DNA of 64,000 bases from Myxococcota bacterium. Its GTDB lineage: Bacteria; Myxococcota_A; SURF-8. A program made the position numbers and the translations under genes. Shown here one piece after another: positions 9,442 through 31,870 of the stretch (within the stretch, counting starts at the first letter, position 1; each line of letters starts with the position of its first letter). The stretch is from positions 4,864,001-4,928,000 of the forward strand of contig OZ223209.1 of the NCBI GenBank assembly GCA_965140415.1, read 5' to 3'. The notes beneath the pieces are model-generated. The model ran no database searches, had not been told where the DNA came from, and saw only the letters and a list, made by a program, of their open reading frames with translations.

Positions 9442-9819
9442 ATGCCGGAACGAATCGTAAAAGGGCAAAAGATCGCGCCTCTGAAAAAGCGCCTGTCGCG
9501 CGAATTTCGTAGAACCATGACTCCCGCGGAAGCGAAGTTCTGGTCGTTGGTTCGCCGCAAGGCGATTAACGGTTGCAAATTCAGGCGACAACAGATCATC
9601 GACGGGTTTATCGTAGATTTCTATTGCCACGAACGGAGTTTGATTGTGGAGATCGACGGCGACATACACGCAGAACATGTAGAGGAAGACAGGGTCCGAC
9701 AAGAGCACCTGGAGAATCGCGGCTTCCACGTCCTGCGATTCCAGAACGTCGATGTACTCAGCAACACTGACACAGTATTGGAAACGATCTTCGAAGCAAC
9801 GAGGAGCGATCATGTTTAG
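9442..9819 (+). CDS. DUF559 / Vsr-like (very-short-patch-repair fold) endonuclease-domain protein
   Basis: REFRRTMTPAEAKFWSLVR...GCKFRRQQIIDGFIVDFYC...LIVEIDGDIH...DRVRQEHLENRGFHVLRFQN. The ORF is open from 9109, but ATG 9442 follows the GGAGG at the end of the last repeat unit. Confidence 0.88.
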   Translation: MPERIVKGQKIAPLKKRLSREFRRTMTPAEAKFWSLVRRKAINGCKFRRQQIIDGFIVDFYCHERSLIVEIDGDIHAEHVEEDRVRQEHLENRGFHVLRFQNVDVLSNTDTVLETIFEATRSDHV

Positions 9820-14191: not shown

Positions 14192-15862
14192 TCAGGGATT
14201 CGCCAGAATGTAACCGCTTATTTCCTGCTTCAGTCGTTCCGCGCGATAAATCGAGAATCCGGTGGAAAGCTGCCACACTTTTTCACCTGTTGCCGTAACT
14301 TCGATCAAGCGGGAAATCTGTCCCGGTTTGTTTTTACCGAAAGTAATCAGCGTATTTCCATTATCCAGACGGTCGGCATCGCCATAGGCCGGACAGAAGA
14401 TGTCCGGGTCCGGTCGATACGACCAGACGGCCTGTGCCTGCATGCTCTGCGTGTCGTAGTGCAACTCCACCGCGCGACTGTATTCGCGAATGTTGTAATC
14501 TCCGTTATCAAATATCAGAATATTTCCATTGGGTAGAATTTCGGGAGCATGCTGTCGATAAAAACGATCCGCCTCCGGAATATCGAAATCCCCATGCTCG
14601 CCCAGCTTCCAAATCACGTTTCCCGTGGCGTGATCCACCTTGAACAAGGTGTACTGGTTGCGAGAAGAAACCAGAAACGCATCTTCATTTGGAAACGGTT
14701 CGACCGTGTTCACATGCGACCAATCGGTTTTCAGCACGTCGGGCCGGTAATGCTCGCAGATATTCCAGCTCCAGATATCCTGCCGCAAGGTCATGTCGTA
14801 TTCACGCACACCACCGGCAAAATACGGTTCCAAATCGCCGGGGCAGTCGTAATAGGTCGTAAGATAAATCAATTTCCCTTCGCCGTAAGTCCGAATATCG
14901 TGATGGACGAACAGGTCTTCCTCCCAGAGCACCTGCCCTTCCCAGTCGACGATGGCAGGCGGGAATACGTTTCGATTACCGCCGATCAGAATTCCCTGTT
15001 CAATCGTACGCACATCCGTATCCGCGCCCTGGTGTCGGATTGCGCGCCGATGATACCAGCGAATGCGTCCCAATTCATCCACGATCACGATTAACAGCGG
15101 GCTTTTATTGACTTCATCATTCTGATTGAAGAGCGTCCAGCCGGATTGAATTTTACTCGCATCGAGTGTGTCGATCGTAAAAACCGGAACGTTTTCCGGC
15201 AGCGGTCCGGCTGTGGCCAGCTGCACAGAGAAGCTGCTCCCGGCTTGCGCCTTGAATTCACATTCGGCTTCGTCGTATAAGCCCATCACAAAAACCTGAT
15301 GATGTGTCTTGGCGGTATCGTCATCGAAAGACCGGCTGTAGTCATCGCCACAGCGAACCTGAAGATGCGTGGCAACGGCAAGATCTGTTTCCCATTCCAC
15401 ATAATACGACAAGCTGTTGGCCGGATTCTGAACCAGGAAAAAGTTTCGAATTTCAACCGGCTGTCCCATGTCGGGCTCGATGTCGGGCTCGATGTCCTCT
15501 TCGAATTCCGTATCCGGTTCCCATTCGATGTCAAACTCGTCGCCTTGTTCCTCTGCATCCGGCAGATCCAAATCGCCATCGATGACGTCATCCGTCTCTA
15601 CTTCTTCCACTTCCATTTCCCAGACCGAATCGAAATCCAGATCGGCGTCTGTCGTATCACCGTCGGAAGGGATGACGTCATCCGTATCCTGTTCGCTTTC
15701 GATATCTGTTTCATTATCTCCGTCGATCTGCGGATCGGCATCGCCATTTACATCCGTATCGCTATCGGAACCGCCGGGATCGGTTGAATCCGAACTACAG
15801 GCGAAAACACCCAACAGCAAAGCCAGTAAGATGGTGGCAAACAGCAGAGAATAAGCACGCAT
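14192..15862 (-). CDS. Aryl-sulfate sulfotransferase (ASST)-like beta-propeller lipoprotein with acidic DGD linker
   Basis: Lipobox VFAC-SSD; HHD, DWSHVN, LVSSRNQ, FYRQHAP, FDNG, YSRAVE and GDADRLDNGNTLIT motifs; ATG 15862 with GGAAGGG RBS. Confidence 0.8.
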   Translation of the reverse strand: MRAYSLLFATILLALLLGVFACSSDSTDPGGSDSDTDVNGDADPQIDGDNETDIESEQDTDDVIPSDGDTTDADLDFDSVWEMEVEEVETDDVIDGDLDLPDAEEQGDEFDIEWEPDTEFEEDIEPDIEPDMGQPVEIRNFFLVQNPANSLSYYVEWETDLAVATHLQVRCGDDYSRSFDDDTAKTHHQVFVMGLYDEAECEFKAQAGSSFSVQLATAGPLPENVPVFTIDTLDASKIQSGWTLFNQNDEVNKSPLLIVIVDELGRIRWYHRRAIRHQGADTDVRTIEQGILIGGNRNVFPPAIVDWEGQVLWEEDLFVHHDIRTYGEGKLIYLTTYYDCPGDLEPYFAGGVREYDMTLRQDIWSWNICEHYRPDVLKTDWSHVNTVEPFPNEDAFLVSSRNQYTLFKVDHATGNVIWKLGEHGDFDIPEADRFYRQHAPEILPNGNILIFDNGDYNIREYSRAVELHYDTQSMQAQAVWSYRPDPDIFCPAYGDADRLDNGNTLITFGKNKPGQISRLIEVTATGEKVWQLSTGFSIYRAERLKQEISGYILANP

Positions 15863-16071
15863 CGCGAACCCTTCCAATATAGCAAAATAATGCACATTCA
15901 GATTTCTATGCAAGCATGCCCGAAGTGAGGTGAAAATGCAAGGAGGAGACGGCAGAAGTCGTGTATGGAAGAAGCGAATGCCGCAGATGGAAACGCTTGA
16001 TTGGTTTGGGGGAGGTGGCGCACCGCCCGTTAATACCCGCAGTGGGCGATGCGCCGGAGGGAAGAGAAAGT

Positions 16072-17113: not shown

Positions 17114-19303
17114 TTAAAACTCAGCCGTTACTCGTAAGCGTGCCGTGGTTGGCTGCCCCGGTGTCACATGCAGGCCCACCAGTTCCTCGCCGTTGGGCTC
17201 GGGACGCGAGGGATAGGCATAGACGGAGTCATACCAGACGGCATTGAACAGATTTTCCACGGATAGCGTGACGCTGATCGGTTTATGCTCCCACCCCACC
17301 TGCACGTCCACGACGTAATAGGAATCCGACTCGTAACCCAAGTCGTGCGCGCGCGGTCCCAGAAACCGGCCCCGAATGGAACCACAGAATCCACTGGGAT
17401 GCCGCACGGCCAGCAGGTTGGTCATCAGCCATTCGGCCATGTTGGGGATCGGGTCGTCGGTGTCCACGAAACGCGCGTGCACGTAGTAGACATCCGTTCC
17501 CAGATACAACCATTCGACGGGGGAAATACGGAATTCGAAATCGGCTCCAAGACGGCGGCTCTTGCCGCGCGGGATGCTCGATCCGAATTCGCTGTCGAAT
17601 ACCGTTTCCGATTCTTTCTCGGCCCACCAGCCCGTCAACGCCAAGGTCAGCCGTCCCCCCCACAGTTTGACTCGGTTACCGACTTCGGCACTCATGATCA
17701 CCGGAATGGTGGAATCTTCTTCCCAGGCAAGTTGCCGTGCGTATACGCTTGTAAAGCCGCGACCGAAATTCAAGAACAGGTTCCAGGGTTTGACCGGCTG
17801 GAAGATCACGCTGACTTTGGGTGAAATCGCATACGCCATGGTGTCCATATTCGCCGCATCGTCATCGATAAAAGGTGTGATATTTCGGTAGATATCGAAT
17901 TCGCCATAGTGATCCTGGCTGCCATCGCCGTTGTAGAAAATGGAATCGAAACGCAAGCCAACGTTCACACGCACCCAGTCGGTCAGTTTCATGCGCTCAT
18001 CCACATACACGCCCAGCGACGTTTCATTGAAATCGTAGTGATTCATCAGGTTGAAGCGTTCACGGTTTTCCGTGTTCGCCTGCAACTGATCCACCCAGTC
18101 ACTACGCAGATTCAAACCGAATTCCGTGCTGAAATCCATCTCACCGAGAATGGCGAAATGACGAGCGTTGGCATTGACTCCCGCATAGTGGCGCTCGTCG
18201 CGCTGTTCGATCTGATCGCCCTTTTCTGGATTGAAGTAATAGAAACTGTAATTGCTCCATATCCGTGTATGCTTGTAATTGTAATAGCCCTGTACGCGGC
18301 CTCTCCATTTTTCCTTTTTCCAGTCGTAGGTCAAGCCGACCAAATGACGGTCCACATCCACCCGATTGGACTGATCCAGCGAATCGAAACGCGACACCTT
18401 GCCTTCTTTGATCCATTGCAAGGGCAGGATGTCCGCCGCTTCACTGCGCGCGGCATAACCAACGTACATCAAACGCAGTTCATTACCTTCTCCCAGATTG
18501 AACCGCTGATTCAGAAAACCGCGCGTAGACCAGGCATCACCCGGATTGGTGTAACCCGAGGTTCGTTCCGCCTGAATCACGAGATATGTATCGTGCCCCA
18601 GCCAGGACTGGTGCAGCCCTCCCTCGACTTCTCCGAAATCATCGCTGCCGCCGCCCACCGTCAGTGCATAATCGTAACCGGGATCGGTGTAGGGAATGTA
18701 GTCGATCACACCGGCAGTGGCGAAATTGCCATAGCGCGGATCGTAGGGACCGTCCATAACCGTAATCTTCTTGATCGTTTCCGGGATGATGAAATGCAGA
18801 TCCAGATATCCAGCGCCATGAACATGGCTGGTTTCGTTTAAGGGAATGCCGTCTAAAAACGCGACGACGTCCTGCCCGTGCTCGGCATCGAAACCGCGTA
18901 GAAAGATCTGATGCGCTTTGGCGCCACCGGTATGCTGGGTAATATGCAAACCCGGAATGAAACGCAGCAAATCGCTTGCGCTTTTTCGCGGATAGTTCAT
19001 GAAGTCTTTATTGCGCACCGTCATATCCGAAGCAGCGGACAGAGGCCGGTCCGCAATTACGGTTACTTCATCCAGTATCGTTCCGACTCCCGAGTTTTTA
19101 TCCGCAGGGGAATCAAACTCGCTGTCGTCGATTTCGGATTCCATTTCGTACACGGCGTCCTGTTGGACGTCGCTTTCAGGCACAGGCGAAGCACTTTCGC
19201 TGTTGCCAGTTTGCTGCTGGGCGACAGCGGAATTGATACCGGCAAATAAGAACATCCCTATCACGGCTGTACTTACGAACAAGAAAAGCGTTCTTGGTGT
19301 CAC
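17114..19303 (-). CDS. TonB-dependent outer-membrane receptor with His-rich plug
   Basis: TonB-box-like DEVTVIA; plug QHTGGAKAHQIFLRGFDAEHGQD...HVHGAGYLDL; GPYDPRYGNFATAG; GLRFD; ENLFN; C-terminal Phe. Confidence 0.9.
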   Translation of the reverse strand: MTPRTLFLFVSTAVIGMFLFAGINSAVAQQQTGNSESASPVPESDVQQDAVYEMESEIDDSEFDSPADKNSGVGTILDEVTVIADRPLSAASDMTVRNKDFMNYPRKSASDLLRFIPGLHITQHTGGAKAHQIFLRGFDAEHGQDVVAFLDGIPLNETSHVHGAGYLDLHFIIPETIKKITVMDGPYDPRYGNFATAGVIDYIPYTDPGYDYALTVGGGSDDFGEVEGGLHQSWLGHDTYLVIQAERTSGYTNPGDAWSTRGFLNQRFNLGEGNELRLMYVGYAARSEAADILPLQWIKEGKVSRFDSLDQSNRVDVDRHLVGLTYDWKKEKWRGRVQGYYNYKHTRIWSNYSFYYFNPEKGDQIEQRDERHYAGVNANARHFAILGEMDFSTEFGLNLRSDWVDQLQANTENRERFNLMNHYDFNETSLGVYVDERMKLTDWVRVNVGLRFDSIFYNGDGSQDHYGEFDIYRNITPFIDDDAANMDTMAYAISPKVSVIFQPVKPWNLFLNFGRGFTSVYARQLAWEEDSTIPVIMSAEVGNRVKLWGGRLTLALTGWWAEKESETVFDSEFGSSIPRGKSRRLGADFEFRISPVEWLYLGTDVYYVHARFVDTDDPIPNMAEWLMTNLLAVRHPSGFCGSIRGRFLGPRAHDLGYESDSYYVVDVQVGWEHKPISVTLSVENLFNAVWYDSVYAYPSRPEPNGEELVGLHVTPGQPTTARLRVTAEF

Positions 19304-19452
19304 GGTTCAGCCTCTGTAGCATGGGTTTGGAATTCGTGCTACCTATTTGGATATCATGCTACCGACAGAAAATGCAAGTCTTTGTTAAAAATTTCCAAGG
19401 AAAGTCCCCTGGTCGACTCTTGCTGTATGAATAGATTAAGCATTACTCATTA

Positions 19453-19491
19453 TTAGCAATGTCTTCAAGTAGCGGCGAGGCGTCCGCCTAC
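19453..19491. repeat. Truncated family C (GTAGCGGCGAG) element with its conserved flank, fused to a family B copy
   Basis: ttagcaatgtcttcaagtagcggcgaggcgt matches 3779-3809 with 3 mismatches. Confidence 0.7.
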
Positions 19492-19578
19492 GTGTGGCAT
19501 GGGCCAAGCGGAGAGAAACGAAGCTTGCCCATGTAGCCCTTGAACACGGGCAAACCTGCGGTTTAGCCCGCGCCACCC
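19492..19578. repeat. 87-bp nested-hairpin dispersed repeat, family B, copy 2
   Basis: gtgtggcatgggccaagc...gcttgcccatg..cacgggcaaac...gtttagcccgcgccaccc. Confidence 0.85.
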
Positions 19579-19684
19579 TGAAATCAACCCGCTTTTTCGG
19601 CAGGCTGATACCACGCCACTATGGCACAATCTCACAGTATTTGTGGCCATATATGACTAATACCTAGTCTGTTGTAAAAGACAA

Positions 19685-21079
19685 TCAGTGGGCGAAATCA
19701 CCGGCAGCGATCAGTTGCTGCATTTGCAGGATGATCGGATTGGAGGTGCGGCTTTGCTTAATTCGTTCGAGTGGAAAGGTGCGGAAATTGAAAAACTGGA
19801 TGATCTGCTCCAAGTCCGAAACCTGAAGTTGCGGCGACGCGAAGGGGAAAAGCAAGGGGTCCAGATCTTCCAAGGGACGCTCGGCCACCAGCTCCGGGTG
19901 TCGTTCGAATTCGACCGTTCCCGGAATCAGGGTGTAAATAAGCAGAGAGGTGGTCAAGCCCAATGAATACACGGATAGAATGTCTTTTAAGATGGACGTG
20001 CGCGTTTGCCAAGGCTGCCCGACCAGCAACACGCAAACCAGTTGCTCGTTTTTGAAACCGGCGCGTTTCAACGTATCGACCGCTTTCAATAGTTGCGTAA
20101 AACCGGTTGGCCGCCCGGTGCGCTTTCCCCATTCCTCATCCACGGTTTCCAACGCCAGGAACACTTCGCGAAAACCGGAACGGAACATGCGCTGGGCGAT
20201 GCGGTCGTTGATCAGGTTGGTTTGTACACCTTCGGGCGCTAAAAAGCGCAGCGGCAGGCCGCTCTCGATCAGGCCGTCCATCATCGGAATGAAATGACTT
20301 TCCGCCTTCAAGAGCAGGTTGGATTCCCAGAAGTGGTATTCCTGCACACCATGCTTTTTATAGGTGTCGTGTACCTCGCGGATAACGGACTCCGGGTCGC
20401 GGAAACGCATCTTGCGGCCTTCCAGCAGACTGACCGCGCAATAGGTACAGGCATTCGGGCAACCGACGGAGGTTTTGAGAATCGACGCTTCAATGTCCTG
20501 CCGCCCGGTGATTTCCAGATCGGGCGACACATCGTCCAGTTCAGGAAGATCGCCGACGTGCAGATCGTCCGCGCCACATTGAGCGGCTTTCTCCGGGCAC
20601 AGGGTCGGGTAGACGCCGCCCAAGTGAATCGTGGCATTGGGATGCGCCTTGCGGCACAGTTCCACCGTTTCATGCGTGGTCCGCCAACTCCAGGTAAAGA
20701 TGGACGACACATAGATATGATCCACATCCGACAGCGCACGAAGGCGGGCAGACAAGTCTTTCTGCGTCAATCCGATTCGATATACCGGCTTGCTGCGCCC
20801 TTCCACGGCGAAGTTTCCCATGGGCGCATCGCGCACCTTGCGTTCGGGACGCGCCAACTCCGCGACGTTATCCGCTTCGATTACCCGGCTTTGCGTACTT
20901 GGCAAAAAGGCGTCGATCAAGCTGACCCGATGTCCTTTCTGCTCGCGCAGATAACGCGCCAACCGCAACAGACCAAGCGGGAAATTGGTAGAGAAACTGG
21001 TGGTCCAGATCCGCAGCGCATCCGCCGTAGCATCGATCGGCGGATAGACGAGCACCGAATGCGGCTGACGTGTACTCAT
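19685..21079 (-). CDS. Cobalamin-binding radical SAM enzyme
   Basis: VLVYPP...PLGLLRLA...LGGVYPTL B12-binding domain; TSVGCPNACTYC (CX3CX2C); ATG 21079 with AAGGAG RBS. Confidence 0.85.
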   Translation of the reverse strand: MSTRQPHSVLVYPPIDATADALRIWTTSFSTNFPLGLLRLARYLREQKGHRVSLIDAFLPSTQSRVIEADNVAELARPERKVRDAPMGNFAVEGRSKPVYRIGLTQKDLSARLRALSDVDHIYVSSIFTWSWRTTHETVELCRKAHPNATIHLGGVYPTLCPEKAAQCGADDLHVGDLPELDDVSPDLEITGRQDIEASILKTSVGCPNACTYCAVSLLEGRKMRFRDPESVIREVHDTYKKHGVQEYHFWESNLLLKAESHFIPMMDGLIESGLPLRFLAPEGVQTNLINDRIAQRMFRSGFREVFLALETVDEEWGKRTGRPTGFTQLLKAVDTLKRAGFKNEQLVCVLLVGQPWQTRTSILKDILSVYSLGLTTSLLIYTLIPGTVEFERHPELVAERPLEDLDPLLFPFASPQLQVSDLEQIIQFFNFRTFPLERIKQSRTSNPIILQMQQLIAAGDFAH

Positions 21080-21160
21080 GCCGCCGCTCCTTCCGTTTTC
21101 CGGCAGTCGGCTACGCTGTTTCGGGCAACGCGGCAAAACAACTTGCTGTTATAGGATACG

Positions 21161-23968
21161 TTAAAATCCAACTTTGTACTCCAAGACGTCTTCCAGTTCC
21201 TCGCTGGTCCAGTTCATCTCGGCCCAGCCTTCCAACGAGTCGGGGGGAACGAAACCCAGTTCGCAGGCCATGTCGAATAACGGTGTGCCCGGATACGGCA
21301 CGTAGCGATTCAACCGCCAGAACCAGGCGTCGGGATTATCCCGCTTGATGGCTTGCGTCAATTCAACGGTAAGCTGGCGTTCCTCTTCCGTTTCGGTGGG
21401 AAAGCCCATCATGAAGATGTACTCGGGAACGATTCCCACACGCTTAAGTTTCACATTGGCATCCAGAATATCCTGGGCCGTGATTTTTTTGTTGATCATG
21501 GCGAGAATGCGATCCGAGCCGGACTCCGCGCCGATGTGCACGTGCCGCAAGCCGGAACGATGCAATAACGCCAAATCCTCTTCCGGCATCTTGTTGATAT
21601 CGCTGATGCGCATCGAGGCGGTCCATTCGACATCCAGCTTGCGCTGAACAATCAACTCCGCCATTTCTCGCGTTCGTTTGTGACTGACGAAGAAGTTGTC
21701 CTCGCAGATATTGATCTGCGTAACGCCACGCTTGGCAATACGCTCGATGTCATTCACGATGCGTTCGGCGCTCTGCCCGCGCCAGCGGCGTTGTTGAATG
21801 CGTGCGATGGCACAGAATGCGCAGTTATGCGGACACCCCCGGCTGGTATACATGGCCCACAACAGCCCGCGCTTTTCGTAGGCCGCGAGATCCACCAACT
21901 CATAGGGAACGGGAGGCAGGGTATCCATATCCAGATGCGGCCTGGCTTCGTTGTGAACGAGTTCCCCGTTCAAGCGCTTGAAGGAAAGCCCCAAAACGCC
22001 ATCCGGTTCTTCACCCCGCTTCAAACATTCCACATACTCTAAAAACGTCTCTTCCCCTTCGCCGCGCACCACGACATCGCAGAATGGGCTCTTCAGCGTT
22101 TGCTCCGGCAATAACGACGGATGCACGCCGCCCCACACGATCGGCAGATCGCCTTGCAGCGAACGGACGAAACGGGCGATCTCCAGTGCGTTTGCGATCT
22201 GGCGACTGATAAAAGACGAGATTCCCACACACAGCACACCGGCCTGCACCGCCTTGACGATTTCATCTTTCCATCGTGGCTCGATGCGCTGATCCACGAT
22301 TTTTACATGAAGGTTGTTTTCTTTTAGCGGTCCCGCAAGATGAAGCAGGGACATCGGCAGTTGCAGCACCGGATCGACGCTTTCGCAATCCGGGAAAACC
22401 AGCAATACATCCGGCTTTTGCTTGGGAGCCGGCATCGCATCCAACCAGCGCCGCGAAAATAGAACGCTGCGAAGCCCGATGCGGTTTCGTTCATCGGAAA
22501 AACAGGCGGCTTCCTTTGAGGCTTCCGTTGCTTTTGCGAAAGCGGCGCGCAGAATCATATGAACGCCCAGCTTCCGCAAGTCAACCACGGCGGTCTTGAT
22601 ACGCTCCCTGTCGTTGTCGTACAAGGTGACACGCACTTCAATTCCAGCCTGCACCAGACGCCGGATGCCCTCGATCTGCTGCGCCAAGGCATCGGGCACA
22701 CCGGAGATGCGCGCCAGAATTTCCGCATCGTACGCGAAGAGCGCCACTTCGGCCACATCCACCCCCGCCTTGTACAACGTTTCCGCAAGCTCCGAATCTT
22801 CCGCACAGGCACGCGCGTTGGTATGCACGATGACATTTGCCCGCGTAGCATCAGCCAGAGAAAGGATTTCCGTAATATCCTCTCGCAGCAACGGCTCGCC
22901 GCCAACCAGAACGAGATCCGGCGTTTCACGACCTTTCAACGCGTCGAGTTGAGAACGAATCTCATCGAACGGCTTTGAGGACTGCGCACGCACGGAACAG
23001 AACGAGCAAGCATGATTGCATCCTCCACCCAGATCGATTTGCGCGGGTTTCGGTCCCGGCACCAAGGCGCTCTGCTCTTCGATGCCGCGCAACATCTCTT
23101 TTGCAAACAGGCTGCTGCGCTGTGGGCAATCGCCCCGGTGGCAGTCGGAATTGAACAGCCGCGCTCGCGACATCCGATCCAGAATCAATTCGAACGGTTC
23201 CTCGCGCAGGTTGCCGTAACTGATCGGGATGAAATTACAGGGTTGCACCTCGCCATACGGCGACACGTAAATGGAGCCACCCACCACCGCTTTACAGTGA
23301 GTAAAGGTGCCGGTTTCCTCTTCCACGATATAAGTGAAGCCGTCGCCGGTAAGGGCGCGCACGCGGGCCATCTCTTCCGGGTCTAACAGGATGTCCTTGT
23401 CTTTCAGCCAGTTGCCGGAACGCATCGGAAAAGCAATGCGTATGCCTTGCGCACCGCCTTTTTTAGCGTGTTCGATAATCCCCTGTAACTCGCCGTTATC
23501 GACATAGCCCTTTACCGCACAGGTGGAAAGATGAAGCGACAAGCCCGCCTCGCGGCAAGCATCCATCGCCCGCATCACTCCCTTGAACGACCCCTTGGTG
23601 CGCTGAAAGGCATCGTGAGTTTCTTCGGAGGCTCCATCCAGACTGATGAACAGACGATACAAGCCGCGCTGTTTCAGTTCCGTTGCCATTTTCAGGTTGA
23701 TGTTCTGGCCGTTGCTGTCGGCGGTCACTTCCCTTGTCATCTGCGCGGCATAGGAAACCAGATCGAGGAAATCGCTGCGTAAGGTCGCTTCGCCACCGAA
23801 CAGGTTGATCGTGCGCGCGCCCAGATGAGCCGCGTTGCGGATCACCGCCTTGATTTCCCTGGTCGTCAGTTCCAGGCTGCGGTCGACCGGATATTGTCCG
23901 GCACTGCAATGCACGCAGTTGCACTGGCAGCGATAGGTGATGCCCATAATGAGCTTGGAAATTCTCAC
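21161..23968 (-). CDS. Triple radical SAM fusion: rSAM-SPASM/twitch + MoaA-like rSAM + cobalamin-binding rSAM
   Basis: Three CX3CX2C motifs: CQCNCVHC (23906-23929), CNHACSFC (22997-23020), CPHNCAFC (21812-21835). GGE motifs in domains 1 and 2; SPASM-like C...SPYGEVQPC...GN; B12 domain LPMSLLHLA, WGGVHPSLLP, RGEGE. GTG start with AAGGAG. Confidence 0.88.
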   Translation of the reverse strand: MRISKLIMGITYRCQCNCVHCSAGQYPVDRSLELTTREIKAVIRNAAHLGARTINLFGGEATLRSDFLDLVSYAAQMTREVTADSNGQNINLKMATELKQRGLYRLFISLDGASEETHDAFQRTKGSFKGVMRAMDACREAGLSLHLSTCAVKGYVDNGELQGIIEHAKKGGAQGIRIAFPMRSGNWLKDKDILLDPEEMARVRALTGDGFTYIVEEETGTFTHCKAVVGGSIYVSPYGEVQPCNFIPISYGNLREEPFELILDRMSRARLFNSDCHRGDCPQRSSLFAKEMLRGIEEQSALVPGPKPAQIDLGGGCNHACSFCSVRAQSSKPFDEIRSQLDALKGRETPDLVLVGGEPLLREDITEILSLADATRANVIVHTNARACAEDSELAETLYKAGVDVAEVALFAYDAEILARISGVPDALAQQIEGIRRLVQAGIEVRVTLYDNDRERIKTAVVDLRKLGVHMILRAAFAKATEASKEAACFSDERNRIGLRSVLFSRRWLDAMPAPKQKPDVLLVFPDCESVDPVLQLPMSLLHLAGPLKENNLHVKIVDQRIEPRWKDEIVKAVQAGVLCVGISSFISRQIANALEIARFVRSLQGDLPIVWGGVHPSLLPEQTLKSPFCDVVVRGEGEETFLEYVECLKRGEEPDGVLGLSFKRLNGELVHNEARPHLDMDTLPPVPYELVDLAAYEKRGLLWAMYTSRGCPHNCAFCAIARIQQRRWRGQSAERIVNDIERIAKRGVTQINICEDNFFVSHKRTREMAELIVQRKLDVEWTASMRISDINKMPEEDLALLHRSGLRHVHIGAESGSDRILAMINKKITAQDILDANVKLKRVGIVPEYIFMMGFPTETEEERQLTVELTQAIKRDNPDAWFWRLNRYVPYPGTPLFDMACELGFVPPDSLEGWAEMNWTSEELEDVLEYKVGF

Positions 23969-24008
23969 GTTCGGATTTCTCCTTCATCCAATCCGAAAGC
24001 CATGCGTT

Positions 24009-25076
24009 TCACGCAAAAGACAAGCGCCGCGCCTGCCGGATGTACTGTTCGATACGCGGGTTGGTCTGGCTCGTTTTAATCAATGACTGCGCCGCCCGTT
24101 CGGTCCAGATGGAAAAAGCCTGCAACCCGGAATGCTTGGGCCATTGCAGCACGTCATGCGCACGGCTTTGAATGCGCTCGGCATTGAGATCGTCGATCGA
24201 ACCCAGGATAAACTGATCGATCTCGTTGACGTTCTCCCGCCCTTCTGGCGCTTCGAACTCGCAGGGCGACATGCCGAAACTGCCGTCGGGGTAAAACTCC
24301 AATACCGACAACGCCAGCAGATCTTCCGGATAGGCGTGCTCCGCGCGATACAGCGCTTCGTTGATACCATCCAGGTATACATTCTTACCCGCCAGCACTT
24401 TCTTTACGATATCCGCAAATAAGCCTGTCAGTTGCTCGCGCAGCGCTTCGATCTGTTCCGCCGTCCAGCGATAGCGCACCAGTCCCGGTAAAAACTTGAC
24501 GACTTCAAATCCCATATCATCCGTTAAATAGCGGTACATCTCCCGCAGACGTTGCACCTCCTGCGGCAATACTACCGTAGCGGCGCAGACGTTCGCCGGA
24601 CCGACTTCCTTTAGCAGTTCTCTGGCGTTCTGTTGACGCCTATCGAAGGTCCGGCGGTGGTTGTCCGTCCAGAGACTTTCATCCATCAATTGCTGGCTGA
24701 TATCCAGGCTGAACACCACCTTGACCTGATGCGCTTTCAGTATCGCGCGCAAGTCGCGATCCAACAGAAAGCCATTGGTGTACAGATACAGTTCGATTTC
24801 TTTATTGCTGGCGGCTTTCTTTTCTCCGGCGTAGCGCAGCACTTCCATCATACCGGGCATCTGCACCGTCGGCTCGCCGCCGTAAATGGCGATCTTTTTC
24901 GATTCTCCGGCGCTATCCACCACGAAATCGATGGCTTTGCGCATGATCGCCGGGTCCATATCCTCATCGGTTTTACGCACGATGCAGAAACGGCAGTTCA
25001 CGTTGCAGCGCGTCGTGATCATCAGATACGCTTTCTCAACCAGAATGCGTTCGATTGTCGATTTGGATTGGACCAC
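24009..25076 (-). CDS. Radical SAM enzyme (AslB/anSME-like core, apparently lacking SPASM cysteines)
   Basis: ITTRCNVNCRFC, YGGEP, YTNG, FSLD. Confidence 0.85.
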   Translation of the reverse strand: MVQSKSTIERILVEKAYLMITTRCNVNCRFCIVRKTDEDMDPAIMRKAIDFVVDSAGESKKIAIYGGEPTVQMPGMMEVLRYAGEKKAASNKEIELYLYTNGFLLDRDLRAILKAHQVKVVFSLDISQQLMDESLWTDNHRRTFDRRQQNARELLKEVGPANVCAATVVLPQEVQRLREMYRYLTDDMGFEVVKFLPGLVRYRWTAEQIEALREQLTGLFADIVKKVLAGKNVYLDGINEALYRAEHAYPEDLLALSVLEFYPDGSFGMSPCEFEAPEGRENVNEIDQFILGSIDDLNAERIQSRAHDVLQWPKHSGLQAFSIWTERAAQSLIKTSQTNPRIEQYIRQARRLSFA

Positions 25077-25111: not shown

Positions 25112-26401
25112 CTACAAGGCTTGATCGCCAAAGTTCTTACGTTGGATCTCCCCGGACAATTCCTGGGCGCGTTCGAAATAACTTTGGAAAACTTTCTTCG
25201 GCACCTGCTCGTCCAGCAACAGGGGATTCTCTACGCTTTTATAGCCGATGCGGCTGAAGTCCATGTCGTGCGTCACCTTGCCGCGCTCGAAAGCGATGTC
25301 CCAATATCCCGAACCCGGCCAGGGAGTGGCTACATAAACCCAGATGATACCATCGATATCCTGTTCGTAAAACCACTCCATGAACTTCAAAGTGTCTTTC
25401 ATGTCTTCTTCGGTTTCGGTTGGATTGCCTAAAATCACGCTACCCAACAGCTTGAAACCGTGATCTTTGGCGCGCAGGAAATTGTTCTTGTTGTTCTCCA
25501 CCCGCGCCTGAATGCCTTTCATGTACTTGATCAGCCGCTCGCTACCGCTTTCCACTCCCGGCAGCAGCACGTGAATGCCGATATCCTGCAAGGTTTGGTA
25601 TTCTTCGTCGCTGAACTGGCGATTGGCAGTGCGGATGAAGCAGGTGCAGTCGCGTAAACGAATGTCCTCCGCATACAACAGCTCACGCAATTTCTTTGTG
25701 TAACTCAAGAAATTTCCAAAGGAATCGTCCCAGATGTTGTAGCTTTCCACACCGGTTTCATCGAACATGGTGCGGATCTGCTGCATCAGGTTTTCCACCG
25801 GCATCATCCGAAACACCGGATCGAAACGCACGGAACTGCAAAAACGACAATTACGGAACGGACATCCCCTGGCGGAAAGCAGCGCCAAGCGCGAATCTTT
25901 TCGCCCTGTAAACTGCGACAGAAACGGGTAATGCGAATAATGCACGATAGGAATTTCTTCCGGCTTGAGGATGCGATCCGGTGTTAGCTTGTGATATTCG
26001 TTACTTGGACGCAGCGTGATTTCGTCGTTCACCAGTTGGCGAATGACCCGCTCCCCTTCTCCGGCAGCCATGAAATCGAACACTTCCGTGTCGTAACGAT
26101 CCAATAGCGTGGCATGTACGCCGCCGATAAAATACAGTTTGTCGGGGTAGGCTTGCTTCAATTGTCTGGCAAGCGCGCGAGCCGGTTCGTATTCATAGGT
26201 TACGGCGCTGAAACCGATGGCATCCGCCCAGGGCATGCACTGCTCGATATAGTCGCTGTCATCGGGATGAATCGCAATACGTAACTTATCGGGCTGATTG
26301 ACATAACTGGCGATGGACAACAGCGAATAAAGCATGTCGCCCTTATGCGGGTTTGCTACAATATCTTTAGCCACATTGGGCCGGATCAGCAATACATTCA
26401 T
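25112..26401 (-). CDS. Cobalamin-binding radical SAM enzyme (class B methyltransferase-like)
   Basis: VLLIRP, IGFSAVT, IGGVHATL, GEGE; SARGCPFRNCRFC (CX4CX2C variant); WDDSF; GVESGS; GNPTETEED; TPWPGS. Confidence 0.87.
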   Translation of the reverse strand: MNVLLIRPNVAKDIVANPHKGDMLYSLLSIASYVNQPDKLRIAIHPDDSDYIEQCMPWADAIGFSAVTYEYEPARALARQLKQAYPDKLYFIGGVHATLLDRYDTEVFDFMAAGEGERVIRQLVNDEITLRPSNEYHKLTPDRILKPEEIPIVHYSHYPFLSQFTGRKDSRLALLSARGCPFRNCRFCSSVRFDPVFRMMPVENLMQQIRTMFDETGVESYNIWDDSFGNFLSYTKKLRELLYAEDIRLRDCTCFIRTANRQFSDEEYQTLQDIGIHVLLPGVESGSERLIKYMKGIQARVENNKNNFLRAKDHGFKLLGSVILGNPTETEEDMKDTLKFMEWFYEQDIDGIIWVYVATPWPGSGYWDIAFERGKVTHDMDFSRIGYKSVENPLLLDEQVPKKVFQSYFERAQELSGEIQRKNFGDQAL

Positions 26402-26493
26402 CGTGCAGCCTCTGTCGCTTCAACTATTCGTAGCTGCACTGTACCCCATTCGCGAGCCTAGGTCAATCGGCCTTGCAGGGTTCGGAAACTATT

Positions 26494-26512
26494 GATAATG
26501 ATAGGCTTTTCT
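26494..26512. promoter_or_regulatory. Possible Fur/PerR-like box upstream of the radical SAM operon
   Basis: GATAATGATAggcttttct matches the first 10 nt of the Fur consensus; the second half is poor. Confidence 0.25.
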
Positions 26513-26527
26513 TGCTTCCAAGAGCGA

Positions 26528-26570
26528 AGAAAACACAAAGGCCGCAACGAAGTGCTCGCTGCGGCCTTTG
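26528..26570 (-). terminator. Intrinsic terminator after sodB
   Basis: Stem caaaggccgca/tgcggcctttg followed on the minus strand by tgttttctt. Confidence 0.7.
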
Positions 26571-26616
26571 GATTCGGTTTCACTTACCGTCGCATCGAAA
26601 CGACGGGATGTAGAAA

Positions 26617-27204
26617 TTACTTGGCTTTGTTCAGGTTTTCCGCCACGAAATCCCAGTTCACCAGGTGATCCAGGAAGGTGTCGATGTACTTGGGCCGCGC
26701 ATTGCGGTAATCGATGTAATAGGCATGTTCCCAGACATCGATGGTCAACAGTGTCGGCGTACTGGTACGCACCGGCGTATCGGCATTGGCGGTTTTATCG
26801 ATTTTCAGCTTGCCGTTTTCCCAGACCAGCCAGGCCCAGCCGGAACCGAACTGCGTTGCGGCAGCATTGGAGAATTCCCGGCGGAAATCCTCGTAGGAGC
26901 CGAAATCCTTCTTGATCTGCTCTGCCAGTTCACCGGTCGGCTCGCCGCCGCCGTTTCCGGAAAGGCAGTTCCAGTAGAAGCTGTGATTCCAGGTTTGCGC
27001 TGCATTATTGAACACACCGCCATCCGCCGTTTGGATGATTTCTTCCAGCGTTTTGTTTTCTTCGGCCTTGCCCTTGACCAGGTTGTTCAGGTTGGTGACA
27101 TAGGCATTGTGATGCTTGCCATGGTGATAATCCAGCGTTTCCGGGCTGATATGCGGATTCAGGGCATCTTTGGCAAAGGGTAGATTGGGAAGTTCAAAAG
27201 CCAT
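26617..27204 (-). CDS. sodB: Iron superoxide dismutase
   Basis: HHGKHH, FNNAAQTWNH (Fe-type), FGSGWAW, DVWEHAYY; AAGGAG RBS. Confidence 0.95.
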   Translation of the reverse strand: MAFELPNLPFAKDALNPHISPETLDYHHGKHHNAYVTNLNNLVKGKAEENKTLEEIIQTADGGVFNNAAQTWNHSFYWNCLSGNGGGEPTGELAEQIKKDFGSYEDFRREFSNAAATQFGSGWAWLVWENGKLKIDKTANADTPVRTSTPTLLTIDVWEHAYYIDYRNARPKYIDTFLDHLVNWDFVAENLNKAK

Positions 27205-27437: not shown

Positions 27438-28178
27438 TTACTTCGCTACCGCAGCAAACCGGGTTTCGACATCCGCCCAGTCTACCACATTCCACCAGTT
27501 CTGGATGTAATCCGCGCGTTTATTCTGGTATTTCAGATAATAAGCGTGCTCCCAGACATCCACCAACAACAGCGGTTGCGCACCGGCAAGCCAGCTACTT
27601 TGATGATTCAACACGCTAAGCACGTATAAGCGCTTGAAGCCGGGATGATACACCAAGACGCCCCAGCCATTGCCTTCGACCGTCTTGGCCGCCTGCGCGA
27701 ACTGTCCCAATAATGCCTGCTGCGAGCCGAAATCCTTGGCGATCTGCTTGGCCAGAGCGCCGGTCGGCGCGGCCTTGGCTACTCCTTTGGGTTTCATGTT
27801 GCTCCAGAAGACACTATGATTGATGTGCCCCGATCCGGCGAAGGCCAAATCGCGTTCCAGGATTTTGATGGAGGCGAAATCTCCCTTGGCGCGTGCTTCG
27901 ACCAGAGCTTTTTCCGTAGAATTCAACAGGTTGACATAGCCCTGATGATGTTTGCCGTGGTGAATTTCCATGGTTTGCGCATCTAAAAACGGCTCCAAAG
28001 CGTCATACGCATAAGGTAGTTTAGGCAATTGATGTTCTCCCACCGCCGGGGCCTGCCCACCAACAGCCAGAGGCGCAGCCGAAGCCGCCAGGCCAGCCCG
28101 CGCCACATTCGGAGCGGCAACCGCCGCCAAACCTCCCAATAGCGCCGCATTCTTCACGAATTCACGTCTGGTTGTCAT
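27438..28178 (-). CDS. Tat-exported Mn/Fe superoxide dismutase
   Basis: Twin-arginine signal TTRREFVK...ARA; HHGKHH, GSGHINH (Mn/cambialistic-like), EGNGW, DVWEHAYY; GGAGG RBS. Confidence 0.9.
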   Translation of the reverse strand: MTTRREFVKNAALLGGLAAVAAPNVARAGLAASAAPLAVGGQAPAVGEHQLPKLPYAYDALEPFLDAQTMEIHHGKHHQGYVNLLNSTEKALVEARAKGDFASIKILERDLAFAGSGHINHSVFWSNMKPKGVAKAAPTGALAKQIAKDFGSQQALLGQFAQAAKTVEGNGWGVLVYHPGFKRLYVLSVLNHQSSWLAGAQPLLLVDVWEHAYYLKYQNKRADYIQNWWNVVDWADVETRFAAVAK

Positions 28179-29491: not shown

Positions 29492-31870
29492 ATGTTCTAC
29501 CGGGATGAAACGAGAAAGTGGGATTCCGGTTTGCAAGTTCCAGCATGGTGTCTGCTCTTACTGTGCGCCGCCCTGCTCTTTTCCTGCTCCAGCAATGACA
29601 CCGGAGTCGATGGGGATGTGGATAAGGAACATGTTGATGTAGAAAAGGGTGACACGGAAGAGAGACGCGAGCAAGAAACGGATTCAGATCCCGACTTCGA
29701 TAACAATGGAGATGCAGACCGCGACCTCGAACTGGATATGGATACCAATGATACTCAGGAAACCGAACCTGATTTAGAGTCTGATTCTGATTCTCCTGCC
29801 GATGGGGATCTGGAACAAGATGCCGATCTTGAATTGGAGATTGAGTTCGGTTTCGATTTCGACATCTATGATATTCCGGTTAGTGATGGAGATGAGGATG
29901 AAGAGCCTGCCCATGAACCGGATACCGAACCGGATGATGGATGGGAACTGTTCCTGCGTCCCGAAGAACCGTTGTTTGGAGACTGCGTTCCTGGAACCGC
30001 CAAGTGCTCCGAAGATCGCACCAAGGGCTATCTATGCTCCTATGAAGGCAAATGGGAACTCTGGGCCACGTATCGACCTCCGGCCTTTTGTGCAGGGTGC
30101 GAAGCCAAATTGGATCACATTTACGCCTGCACCGGGAGTTCCAATGATTTTCCCTGTACGGGCGCAAATGGGATTATCACCCCAAGCAATGCCATCTATA
30201 AGTACGGCGAGCGTCCCATCGTTGCAGTACAAGGCCCTGGCGGGCCTTGCGACTTAAGCAACAGAGGTGAAATCGATGTGGAGCATATTCGCTGCAAGAA
30301 CGACCCCTTTTATTGCGGTGAGGGAAAGGAATGCCTGTTGTTGTTCTACGGTGATACTGGATGGGGCGAATCCTGCGAAGAAACCCAATGGTACGGCTGC
30401 TTTTGGGAAGAACAGGCCAAGGTGATATACCCCTGCGCCAATGGCTGCACGGAGAGCGTTGGTGAAATCAATTCCGGAATGAATGTTCCCCTCTATGAAT
30501 CGGCGCGTTGCCTGGGAGAGGAACCACTGGTCGTGTTCAATCATGACTTCCCCAATGATATTGTGGATCGCAGCTGGTGCAGCTCATATATGGGAGGCAG
30601 TTATTACGATAAACGTATGTCTAGCCCGGATGACTATTGTAGTAATAATGGTAAAGAAGAACTCCGTTGCTATCACGGGATGTGTATTCCAACGGATTCT
30701 CCTTACTGCCAATGGTCTTTCGATTGCACAGACGGCAAGACTTGCGTAGAGGGTATCTGCCAGCCCTACGAGCCGAGTCTCGATGGCGATTTGGAACAGC
30801 CTGTTGAATTATGCGGAAATGGAGTTGTAGACGCTGAAAACAATGAAGTCTGTGATCCTGGGATGGAAGTGCTTTGCTCAGATCTGGGACGCCCAGGCTC
30901 CACGCAGTACGCTGTCTGCAAAGCAGACTGTTCCGGTTGGGAAGAGGATAATTGTTTGTGCGGAAACGGGCAACAGGATCCCGGTGAAGTTTGCGAACTG
31001 GGACAAACAGAAAGTTGTGAAGCACTCGGCGTACCGACCCCCGAAGCGGAAGCCGTCTGTGCGAGGGATTGTGCCAAATGGAATCCAACATCCTGTTCTG
31101 TAATGGAAGCGCCAGAATGGATTCCTATACCCGCAGGAACATACCAAATGGGTTGCGTACCACAGGATACGCTCTGTATTCCGGACGAATCACCGCGTCA
31201 TCCGGTTACGGTCGATGCGTTTGAGATATCGGAAACGGAAGTAGCTTATGTTCACTATCTTCATTTTCTAAACTCCCATGGAGCGGCTTGCGATAACCAC
31301 TCCTGTGTGGACATGAGTCTTGGGGCCCTTCCATTCAAAGAACGTGATGGCGTGTGGAACATGGATCTGGATAGAATTACAATTGCCCCTATGTCAGAAG
31401 TGACGTGGTATGGAGCTAAAGCCTTCTGCGAGTGGGTCGGTGGTCGTCTGCCGACCGAAGCTGAATGGGAATATGCGGCTCGTACCGGTTCGGATGCCAT
31501 CTATGCCTGCGGCGACGATCCGGCCTGTCTGGAAACAATCGCATGGTATGATCAAAATTATTACCATCAGAGTAGCCAATTGGAACCGAACGCTTGGGGA
31601 TTATACGACATGCAGGGCAATGTCTGGGAGTGGGTCGCCGATTGTTGGCATCTAAATTATGATGAAGCTCCCGGTACCGGAACACTCTGGGAGGGAGGCG
31701 ACTGCACCTATCGAGGAGTGCGTGGAGGCGGTTGGTATCACAACGTCCAATTTGTCAGCCCGTTTTTGAAATTACGGGTATCCAATCGGGATTGGTATCC
31801 TCCAGATTATTCCAGTGAATCACTAGGTTTCCGCTGTGTGCGAGATATCCAGGAAAGTAGCCCACAGTAG
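29492..31870 (+). CDS. Lipoprotein with acidic DGD linker, Cys-rich (CGNG myxobacterial disulfide-type) repeats and C-terminal FGE/SUMF1 domain
   Basis: Lipobox LLFSC-SS; CGNGVVD..EVCD and CGNGQQDPGEVCE; YQMGC, RLPTEAEWEYAAR, NAWGLYDMQGNVWEW, RGGGW, LGFRCVR; GGAGG RBS. Confidence 0.85.
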   Translation: MFYRDETRKWDSGLQVPAWCLLLLCAALLFSCSSNDTGVDGDVDKEHVDVEKGDTEERREQETDSDPDFDNNGDADRDLELDMDTNDTQETEPDLESDSDSPADGDLEQDADLELEIEFGFDFDIYDIPVSDGDEDEEPAHEPDTEPDDGWELFLRPEEPLFGDCVPGTAKCSEDRTKGYLCSYEGKWELWATYRPPAFCAGCEAKLDHIYACTGSSNDFPCTGANGIITPSNAIYKYGERPIVAVQGPGGPCDLSNRGEIDVEHIRCKNDPFYCGEGKECLLLFYGDTGWGESCEETQWYGCFWEEQAKVIYPCANGCTESVGEINSGMNVPLYESARCLGEEPLVVFNHDFPNDIVDRSWCSSYMGGSYYDKRMSSPDDYCSNNGKEELRCYHGMCIPTDSPYCQWSFDCTDGKTCVEGICQPYEPSLDGDLEQPVELCGNGVVDAENNEVCDPGMEVLCSDLGRPGSTQYAVCKADCSGWEEDNCLCGNGQQDPGEVCELGQTESCEALGVPTPEAEAVCARDCAKWNPTSCSVMEAPEWIPIPAGTYQMGCVPQDTLCIPDESPRHPVTVDAFEISETEVAYVHYLHFLNSHGAACDNHSCVDMSLGALPFKERDGVWNMDLDRITIAPMSEVTWYGAKAFCEWVGGRLPTEAEWEYAARTGSDAIYACGDDPACLETIAWYDQNYYHQSSQLEPNAWGLYDMQGNVWEWVADCWHLNYDEAPGTGTLWEGGDCTYRGVRGGGWYHNVQFVSPFLKLRVSNRDWYPPDYSSESLGFRCVRDIQESSPQ

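Follow-up and report, generated by a model that had tools for sequence, protein, structure and literature searches.

Radical S-adenosylmethionine (SAM) enzymes have, to our knowledge, almost always been studied as single catalytic units. The FO synthase FbiC, with two domains, is the only multi-domain precedent that can be cited here from a paper, an excerpt of which (PMC11917521) describes more than one complete radical SAM domain per polypeptide and the use of two 5'-deoxyadenosyl radicals in one overall reaction. The subject of the present study is P0001, a single polypeptide with three radical SAM domains encoded in a 64,000-nucleotide stretch of DNA (hereafter the window) from a Myxococcota bacterium (GenBank assembly GCA_965140415.1, contig OZ223209.1, positions 4,864,001 to 4,928,000). 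For separate scans the protein was divided into D1 (residues 1-295), D2 (296-500) and D3 (501-935), and the gene that follows it, for a 483-residue B12-binding radical SAM protein, is called B.

Several described systems resemble parts of P0001. FbiC, a fusion of CofG and CofH, shares with it the presence of multiple radical SAM domains in one chain, and in both cases split and fused forms exist in nature; FbiC differs, however, in having two domains rather than three and neither cobalamin nor an auxiliary-cluster domain, and the CofG and CofH families are not among the best 25 of the 106 NCBIfam families matched by P0001, to which all NCBIfam figures given below for the whole protein refer. 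The likeness to FbiC is thus best read as an analogy of mechanism and not as membership. The AhbD, NirJ and MoaA families (TIGR04545, TIGR04055 and TIGR02666) are the top curated families of D1 and D2, and the CX13GX4C start of the auxiliary region of D1 is common to them, but the scores lie below the family cut-offs, D1 keeps only three auxiliary Cys and D2 has no auxiliary domain. The class B enzymes, among them OxsB, TsrM, MgmA/QCMT, CysS and TokK and, by sequence, BchE, ApyD and HpnJ, have the same layout as D3, with structural Z scores of 28.7-33.1 over some 350-400 aligned residues, although D3 is no separate protein but the C-terminal third of a larger one, and whether such a module carries out methylation, ring contraction or dehydration cannot be read from sequence. 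The pairing of a SPASM-type with a non-SPASM radical SAM protein recalls HxsB and HxsC (TIGR03978 and TIGR03977, whose role is taken from the NCBIfam family descriptions); D2 matches HxsC with 44.6 bits, far under the cut-off of 267.9, D1 and D2 are fused, and no gene for a His-Xaa-Ser peptide is present.

A real and conserved gene

An earlier note on this DNA had described a single 935-residue polypeptide without stops or frameshifts, had placed three CX3CX2C motifs in it, and had flagged a misassembly fusion as a possibility to be checked. Translation of the reverse strand gives 935 residues from a GTG start with no internal stop, with an AAGGAG Shine-Dalgarno sequence about 10 nt 5' of the GTG, and the motifs lie at residues 14-21, 317-324 and 712-719, exactly at the coordinates given earlier (Table 1). 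In run X1 one contig matches the window letter for letter over 20900-24200, and in sample X2 a 1820-nt contig corresponding to 22372-24191 crosses both the D1/D2 and the D2/D3 junctions without joints, indels or differing letters. X1 and X2 are runs of one study and X1 is possibly the source of the window genome, so that homologues make a stronger argument against an artefact than these contigs do. A search of 5.8 billion proteins (best 100 of 7997 scored candidates) yielded, among the matches listed, six more full-length homologues with three domains, at 41-60% identity and 100% query coverage (P0003, 60%; P0004, 59%; P0005, 44%; P0006, P0007 and P0009, 41%), drawn from ENA, NCBI, Logan and JGI assemblies. 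P0008, P0010 and P0011 are partial homologues, and P0102, from a search of representatives, is an eighth protein with the same fused D1-D2-D3 layout (type A in Table 1). That neighbouring radical SAM genes have been joined by assembly or gene calling is a thought encouraged by relatives with split forms, in which a D1D2 protein of 514 residues precedes separate B12 genes (L004/L005). Set against the unbroken frame, the full-length homologues from different assemblies and the clean junctions in contigs of two samples, such an artefact is extremely improbable; P0001 is a real, conserved gene and not a misassembly.

Domain architecture and predicted cofactors

Three Radical_SAM stretches are found when the whole of P0001 is searched with Pfam (E 1.3e-69), along with matches to B12-binding at residues 538-644, SPASM at 225-273 and Fer4_12 at 315-379. 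Scanned alone, each domain matches Radical_SAM (PF04055) far beyond chance, with 82.2 bits for D1, 67.2 for D2 and 95.8 for D3 and a cut-off of 29.5. Conservation was read from an alignment of 37 rows (A4), the counts being taken over the rows that cover each position.

In D1 the GGE motif at residues 58-60 is kept in 24 of 24 rows, and comparison of the structural model of residues 1-295 with solved folds gives SkfB (Z 26.6) and SuiB (25.0) as the best, with BlsE, viperins, PqqE, MoaA and anSME also among the matches. Twitch, or half-SPASM, domains are defined by a CX9-15GX4C element together with further Cys, by which one auxiliary cluster is bound. Past the core D1 has CX13GX4C and C281, each of these Cys kept in all 26 rows, with C489 as a candidate fourth ligand, and its match to the SPASM profile (PF13186) covers profile positions 1-52 of 67. 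Because only three auxiliary Cys (C225, C244 and C281) are invariant, rather than the seven of a full SPASM domain, D1 is predicted to be twitch-like and to hold one auxiliary cluster. Cys489 sits in a low-confidence, disordered linker of the whole-protein model and could supply the missing fourth ligand of that cluster.

The AlphaFold2 (AF2) model of D2 alone has six alternating strand/helix units and a predicted local distance difference test (pLDDT) score of 88.6, and Foldseek aligns it with BlsE, SuiB, PylB, SkfB, MoaA, GDGT-MAS, MgmA and NifB at E of about 1e-8 to 1e-7 and a query-normalised TM-score of about 0.7. Of 26 rows, 25 keep G356 and 25 keep G357, and at E358 the residue is Glu in 20 and Asp in 5; the aromatic position inside its CX3CX2C motif varies (Gly in 9, Phe in 7 and Trp in 3 of 26). 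D3 has the domain layout of class B enzymes, with an N-terminal B12-binding Rossmann domain (PF02310, 66.5 bits when D3 is scanned alone, cut-off 32.1) ahead of the radical SAM core, and comparison of residues 516-933 with solved structures gives OxsB (Z 33.1), AprD4 (31.9), TsrM (29.6), MgmA (29.4) and CysS (28.7). AprD4, which has the class B fold yet is not known to bind cobalamin, is the third-best structural match of D3 (Z 31.9).

Together these features predict three radical SAM clusters, one auxiliary Fe-S cluster and cobalamin. The earlier note had expected at least three to four Fe-S clusters and cobalamin, and the three Cys triads, C225/C244/C281 and the B12 Rossmann domain lead to the same prediction. 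Its assignment of SPASM or twitch Cys after the first motif stands, in the twitch-like form, as does that of a B12-binding domain ahead of the third, and its worry that the middle domain might be degenerate is countered by a triad of Cys without exception in the 26 rows and by a predicted core complete in its six units. Its division into three subfamilies holds in part: D3 is of class B and D2 has no auxiliary domain, but D1 and D2 share the AhbD/NirJ/MoaA-like group as their best. Common membership of that NCBIfam group does not make D1 and D2 recent duplicates, since BLASTP aligns them with an E of just 0.004.

Relation to curated families

No curated NCBIfam cut-off is reached by P0001 among the best 25 of 106 families. 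AhbD gives 177.9 bits over three stretches against a cut-off of 500 (61.8 for D2 alone), BchE 159.1 against 481.35, ApyD 149.9 against 750, NirJ2 146.5 against 500, HpnJ (on D3) 135.7 against 577.6 and MoaA 124.6 against 284; a family with the name 'lipid biosynthesis B12' is also among the best for the whole protein. D2 alone scores best to AhbD, MoaA, ScmF, Tes and HxsC, and JGI labels the homologue P0009 as BchE. The best PDB sequence match of D3 is 9ccb (3.1e-19), identified in an excerpt of its paper as MgmA/QCMT (PMC12931638).

The earlier note knew of no characterised enzyme of this architecture, and that statement survives: no family cut-off is reached, and no report of an enzyme with three radical SAM domains was found in the literature searched, most subscription journals lying outside the search. 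The architecture is uncharacterised and not unique, there being at least eight type-A proteins in addition to other three- and four-domain fusions. What is new is a conserved, uncharacterised architecture and a newly delineated D1-D2 didomain family, the component superfamilies being already known.

Layouts and distribution of relatives

The arrangement of relatives was derived from tblastn of the parts against 17 loci and from domain mapping of 41 proteins, and falls into three layouts (Table 1). The B module of type-B fusions is 35-44% identical to the 483-residue protein of the window. At every locus with visible following sequence (the window, both sets of L001, L002, L003, L004/L005, L006, L011, L012 and L013/L014), a B12 radical SAM module is either fused to D1-D2 or encoded next after it.

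Two quick trees, with support from the Shimodaira-Hasegawa-like approximate likelihood ratio test (SH-aLRT) only, bear on the history of these layouts. The tree built from 36 B12 modules groups the fused D3s in a single clade (support 99), next to stand-alone enzymes some 520 residues long; the genes that follow type-B fusions make up a different clade (support 100), and fused and separate B orthologs interleave within one clade. The fusion of D3 thus appears, from this topology, to have a single origin among otherwise stand-alone B12 enzymes. In a tree of D1D2 (35 rows, from which the N-terminally cut P0010 and P0011 were left out), one change suffices to explain type A (support 69), the clade that contains type B has support 98, and a separate clade (support 100) is made up of stand-alone D1D2 proteins some 515 residues long. 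From layouts and trees, therefore, D1-D2 and B make up the conserved unit, and D3 has been inserted between the two in a lineage-specific manner.

Distribution within the phylum is patchy. A match at E up to 1e-30 occurs in 13 of 401 sampled genomes and in none of the five genomes of the same family, and a match that spans D1 and D2 in six of the 401 (the window genome, G118, G148, G313, G018 and G048). In a library of 1.84 billion proteins 157 representatives reach E 1e-30, and at least 19 of the best 150 of these span D1 and D2.

Proposed function and alternative readings

One reading, for which the chances are about even, is that P0001 has three active sites and carries out the multi-step tailoring of a small, non-peptide substrate. 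Every domain would have a [4Fe-4S] cluster and SAM of its own and would form a separate 5'-deoxyadenosyl radical, D1 holding in addition the auxiliary cluster and D3 the cobalamin. The functional core would be the D1-D2 didomain, which, in the manner of FbiC, might spend two separate radicals on a single net transformation, for instance a C-C coupling, a rearrangement or an oxidative decarboxylation, in which the auxiliary cluster of D1 would handle either an electron or the substrate. Cobalamin-dependent steps would then be the part of D3 and B, with methylation at unactivated carbons the likeliest, and the six radical SAM domains of the operon may act successively on one substrate, for which a small metabolite, cofactor or lipid already made by the cell is likelier than a ribosomal peptide. 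An existing cellular molecule is suggested because the clusters hold almost only radical SAM genes, without genes that would build a scaffold. The analysis itself shows the unbroken frame, the conservation of the motifs, the folds, the patterns of fusion and how the operon is laid out; activity at all the sites, the order of the steps, methylation by the B12 modules and the class of substrate are what we infer from these data. The earlier note had gone as far as an assembly-line enzyme, which stays a proposal; the fusion patterns among relatives support joint action of the domains, their arrangement being left open by the whole-protein model, with a predicted template modelling (pTM) score of 0.64.

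Substrate class is where this reading meets its most serious competitor, a peptide or protein maturase that would leave cross-linking or epimerisation to D1 and the C-methylation of side chains to the B12 modules, as in proteusin-like pathways for peptides made by the ribosome and modified after translation (RiPPs) or in the methylation of glutamine in MCR (methyl-coenzyme M reductase). The folds closest to D1, SkfB and SuiB, the best match of the 355-residue protein of the operon to PapB and other peptide maturases (100 bits), the best PDB match of D3 to MgmA/QCMT and the score to the RiPP enzyme ApyD all speak for it, the family scores being, for their part, far under their cut-offs. The motifs begin at residue 14 in D1 and at residue 24 in the 355-residue protein and so lie too close to the N-terminus for a recognition domain to precede them; Pfam shows none in either protein, with no PqqD-like or RiPP recognition element (RRE) domain in P0001 at E up to 0.1. 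Small open reading frames (ORFs) in the window gaps at 19303-19685 and 26401-26617 look random, nothing in the gaps of the related G118 contig is convincing as a precursor peptide, and an all-against-all comparison of ORFs of at least 35 residues from 17 loci and the window yields no conserved small ORF outside the shadows of real genes. The sole candidate, upstream of type-B fusions, was rejected as the opposite-strand shadow of a conserved lipoprotein gene. The P0001 locus thus has neither the recognition domain nor the adjacent precursor gene of a RiPP maturase, and this lack, with the missing scaffold-building genes, favours a non-peptide substrate. Some RiPP maturases have no recognition domain, and a precursor may be encoded at another place in the genome, so that a maturase is made less probable by these findings only to the point of being unlikely.

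Tailoring of a sugar polymer or glycolipid at the cell surface is brought to mind by P0148, which joins D1-D2 to a family 2 glycosyltransferase (GT2) and a radical SAM domain, by several B12 radical SAM relatives fused to family 1 glycosyltransferase (GT1) domains, by a PF03706 membrane protein encoded between two B12 radical SAM genes at L005, 3-9 kb from D1D2, and by the HpnJ score on D3. That score is far under the HpnJ cut-off, however, and with no glycosyltransferase, sugar-nucleotide or export gene in the window operon or at L001-L003, L006 and L012 the idea is an improbable one. Improbable to a like degree is the view that just one or two domains are catalytic and that D2 (or D1) is a structural or cluster-carrying remnant of an otherwise ordinary B12 radical SAM enzyme. 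With some 190 residues D2 is short, it has no auxiliary domain to cap a substrate, and the aromatic residue of its motif varies; yet its motif Cys are invariant, 25 of 26 rows retain GG(E/D), its model is a full core at high confidence, and it persists through deep divergence, including the clade of stand-alone 515-residue proteins. A bolder possibility is that D1-D2, Cys489 and a B-type cobalamin enzyme form an obligate multi-radical machine for remodelling a tetrapyrrole-type cofactor in Myxococcota, a new pathway in which C489 would complete an inter-domain Fe-S cluster. It is a long shot, for which the hints are weak: AhbD and NirJ as best families of D1 and D2 and BchE as that of D3, all from sub-threshold scores, nitrogenase-like neighbours in G118, and a heme/B12-type TonB receptor encoded next downstream in the window.

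The tailoring enzyme with three active sites and a small substrate has to be weighed against a set of findings that count against it. In the whole-protein model (pLDDT 90.2, pTM 0.64) the linker falls below pLDDT 50 at 480-488, 493-496 and 512-516, and the placement of D3 relative to the other domains is consequently not predicted. The predicted chemistry is extrapolated, because no NCBIfam model comes near its cut-off. OxsB and AprD4, the two best structural neighbours of D3, are not methyltransferases, and methylation is merely the commonest option for the chemistry of D3 and B. The closest folds of D1 and the best family of the 355-residue protein are peptide maturases, and MgmA, matched by D3, acts on a protein. 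Finally, the 429- and 355-residue genes that precede the triple gene in the window operon accompany it in only two of six genomes checked, the window genome and G118, the latter with adjacent orthologs (50% and 49% identical) on the same contig as the triple.

With three radical sites, four predicted Fe-S clusters and cobalamin in one chain, P0001 may offer a compact model for coupled radical steps on one substrate. The comparative data define a new unit, D1-D2 with an invariant linker Cys, paired with a B12 enzyme and with partners that vary by lineage. They also provide testable hypotheses, that the parts form a physical complex and that a probably heavily modified metabolite exists in Myxococcota. 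The value is limited by the recurrence of multi-radical-SAM fusions in uncultured bacteria.

The operon and its surroundings

The triple gene belongs to an operon of four genes on the reverse strand, with gaps of 24-40 nt and six radical SAM domains in total (Table 1). The 355-residue protein has its CX3CX2C motif at residue 24 and one further Cys near its C-terminus, and the cut-off of its best NCBIfam family, PapB, is 340 bits. Over the aligned part D3 is 23% identical to the 483-residue B and 26% to the 429-residue protein. The window genome is a single 5.98-Mb contig with 94 PF04055 matches, 90 of them above the cut-off, and the frame of P0001 is the only one that holds three; it also contains the only D1-D2 copy of that genome. 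A 712-residue frame with two Radical_SAM matches lies elsewhere in the same genome (G000:C1:4263295-4264557).

Table 1. Coordinates of the triple radical SAM gene, its domains and motifs and its operon in the window, and layouts of related loci
Feature	Location	Strand	Basis or detail
Triple radical SAM gene (P0001), stop codon included	21161..23968	(-)	Open frame and AAGGAG Shine-Dalgarno
D1 (aa 1-295): radical SAM core and predicted twitch/half-SPASM auxiliary-cluster domain	23084..23968	(-)	Radical_SAM 82.2, SPASM 25.5 bits
CX3CX2C motif 1 (C14, C18, C21)	23906..23929	(-)	Cys in 24/24 A4 rows
Putative auxiliary-cluster Cys, C225-x13-G239-x4-C244 ... C281	23126..23296	(-)	Each kept in 26/26 rows
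D2 (aa 296-500): compact, complete radical SAM core without auxiliary domain	22469..23083	(-)	Radical_SAM 67.2 bits and AF2 model
CX3CX2C motif 2 (C317, C321, C324)	22997..23020	(-)	Cys in 26/26 rows; invariant also in alignment A6
Cys489 codon, D2-D3 linker	22502..22504	(-)	Invariant in 26/26 D1D2 proteins, including stand-alone forms
D3 (aa 501-935): class B (cobalamin-type) radical SAM module	21164..22468	(-)	Radical_SAM 95.8 and B12-binding 66.5 bits
B12-binding Rossmann domain (aa 538-644)	22037..22357	(-)	PF02310 70.9 bits, cut-off 32.1
CX3CX2C motif 3 (C712, C716, C719)	21812..21835	(-)	Cys in 24, 25 and 25 of 26 rows
First operon gene: 429-aa B12-binding radical SAM protein	25112..26401	(-)	Pfam
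Second operon gene: 355-aa radical SAM protein without SPASM domain	24009..25076	(-)	Pfam
Gene after the triple, B: 483-aa B12-binding radical SAM protein	19685..21136	(-)	Pfam
Promoter-like site before the operon, TTGACC-17-TACAGT	26438..26466	(-)	Consensus match only
Terminator-like hairpin, 16-bp stem and T run, between operon and upstream superoxide dismutase gene	26536..26570	(-)	Sequence
Type A: D1-D2-D3 fused, B the next gene	Window; L001		B ortholog in L001 60% identical
Type B: D1-D2-B fused, then another B12 gene	L002, L003, L006, L011-L014, P0103, P0106, P0012
Split: D1D2 of 514 aa, then B, then a B12 gene	L004/L005

On its 3' side the operon is followed, after a gap of 382 nt, by genes for a TonB-dependent receptor, an acidic lipoprotein and an arylsulfotransferase-like protein, none of which recurs at related loci or shows any sign of belonging to the system. 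The best solved relative of the receptor is BtuB, over the plug domain only (1.3e-11), and its NCBIfam scores are 77 bits for the heme type and 53 bits for the B12 type, both far under the cut-offs. Rfam finds no family at gathering scores in the whole window, and none at E up to 1 in 19200-19800, where no cobalamin riboswitch is seen before the receptor gene. An arylsulfotransferase-like gene occupies 14192-15913. Directly upstream of the oxygen-sensitive radical SAM operon, and set apart from it by a strong terminator, lie two tandem Fe/Mn superoxide dismutase genes (26617-27204 and 27438-28178, both on the reverse strand), the second of which encodes a protein extended by about 45 residues at its N-terminus.

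Other fusions and further loci

Multi-radical-SAM fusions are recurrent in uncultured bacteria. Three motifs are present in 14 of the 41 proteins examined, among them P0217 and P0035 with three each and P0132, which adds a MiaB-like module to D1-D2; P0130 and P0138 have four pattern matches. P0130, seen on 10 contigs, has in its 1260 residues four Pfam Radical_SAM stretches and as many CX3CX2C motifs; a MiaB-like N-terminus and further domains precede D1-D2 at its end. P0148 adds to D1-D2 and GT2 an additional radical SAM domain. Longer fusions (1638-4675 residues) were looked for and none was found at E up to 1e-10, a negative of little weight, and with D1-D2 the ESM Atlas returns only generic radical SAM clusters.

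A 47.6-kb contig of G118 (C24, comprising L001, L040 and L041) encodes some 20 radical SAM domains in about 37 kb, including a second D1D2 set and a 1393-residue protein with two B12 radical SAM modules, together with a class I methyltransferase. Beside its orthologs of the 429- and 355-residue genes are two proteins like nitrogenase component 1 (NifE/BchN/BchB-like, 777 and 387 residues), with no NifH-like partner next to them. The window genome has two NifH/NifD/NifK-like sets of its own (L047, G000:C1:1047000-1066999, and L048, G000:C1:906000-925999), whose H-like proteins score 270-286 bits to NifH and 265-273 bits to CfbC, below the cut-offs, and whose D-like subunits of 723-737 residues have N-terminal extensions of about 330 residues. 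A link between these sets and the operon was considered and rejected, given their distance of some 3.8-4 Mb from it and the absence of radical SAM genes beside them.

A family of proteins of about 340 residues (P0250) is encoded inside type-B clusters (L001:7187-8440, L012:15271-16521, L003:15960-17069 and L002:6170-7765). It is small, with only nine clusters, all unnamed, and has no match in Pfam, PDB profiles or NCBIfam; in the ESM Atlas it shows a likeness to aromatic (ABBA) prenyltransferases that is a lead only. The copy in the window genome (L039:9838-10863) is distant from the operon and stands among unrelated genes.

Elsewhere in the window, the reverse strand of 32164-61281 is a single ORF of 9705 residues, without tandem DNA repeats at a Tandem Repeats Finder (TRF) score of at least 200 and, for its first 5000 residues, without a PDB sequence match at 1e-5. 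A phosphofructokinase gene at 12397-14025 on the reverse strand encodes a Lys/Ala-rich N-terminal extension of about 140 residues that resembles the histone H1-like protein HC2, and two genes on the forward strand, at 9752-12193 and 29492-31870, encode proteins of 813 and 792 residues with FGE-sulfatase domains.

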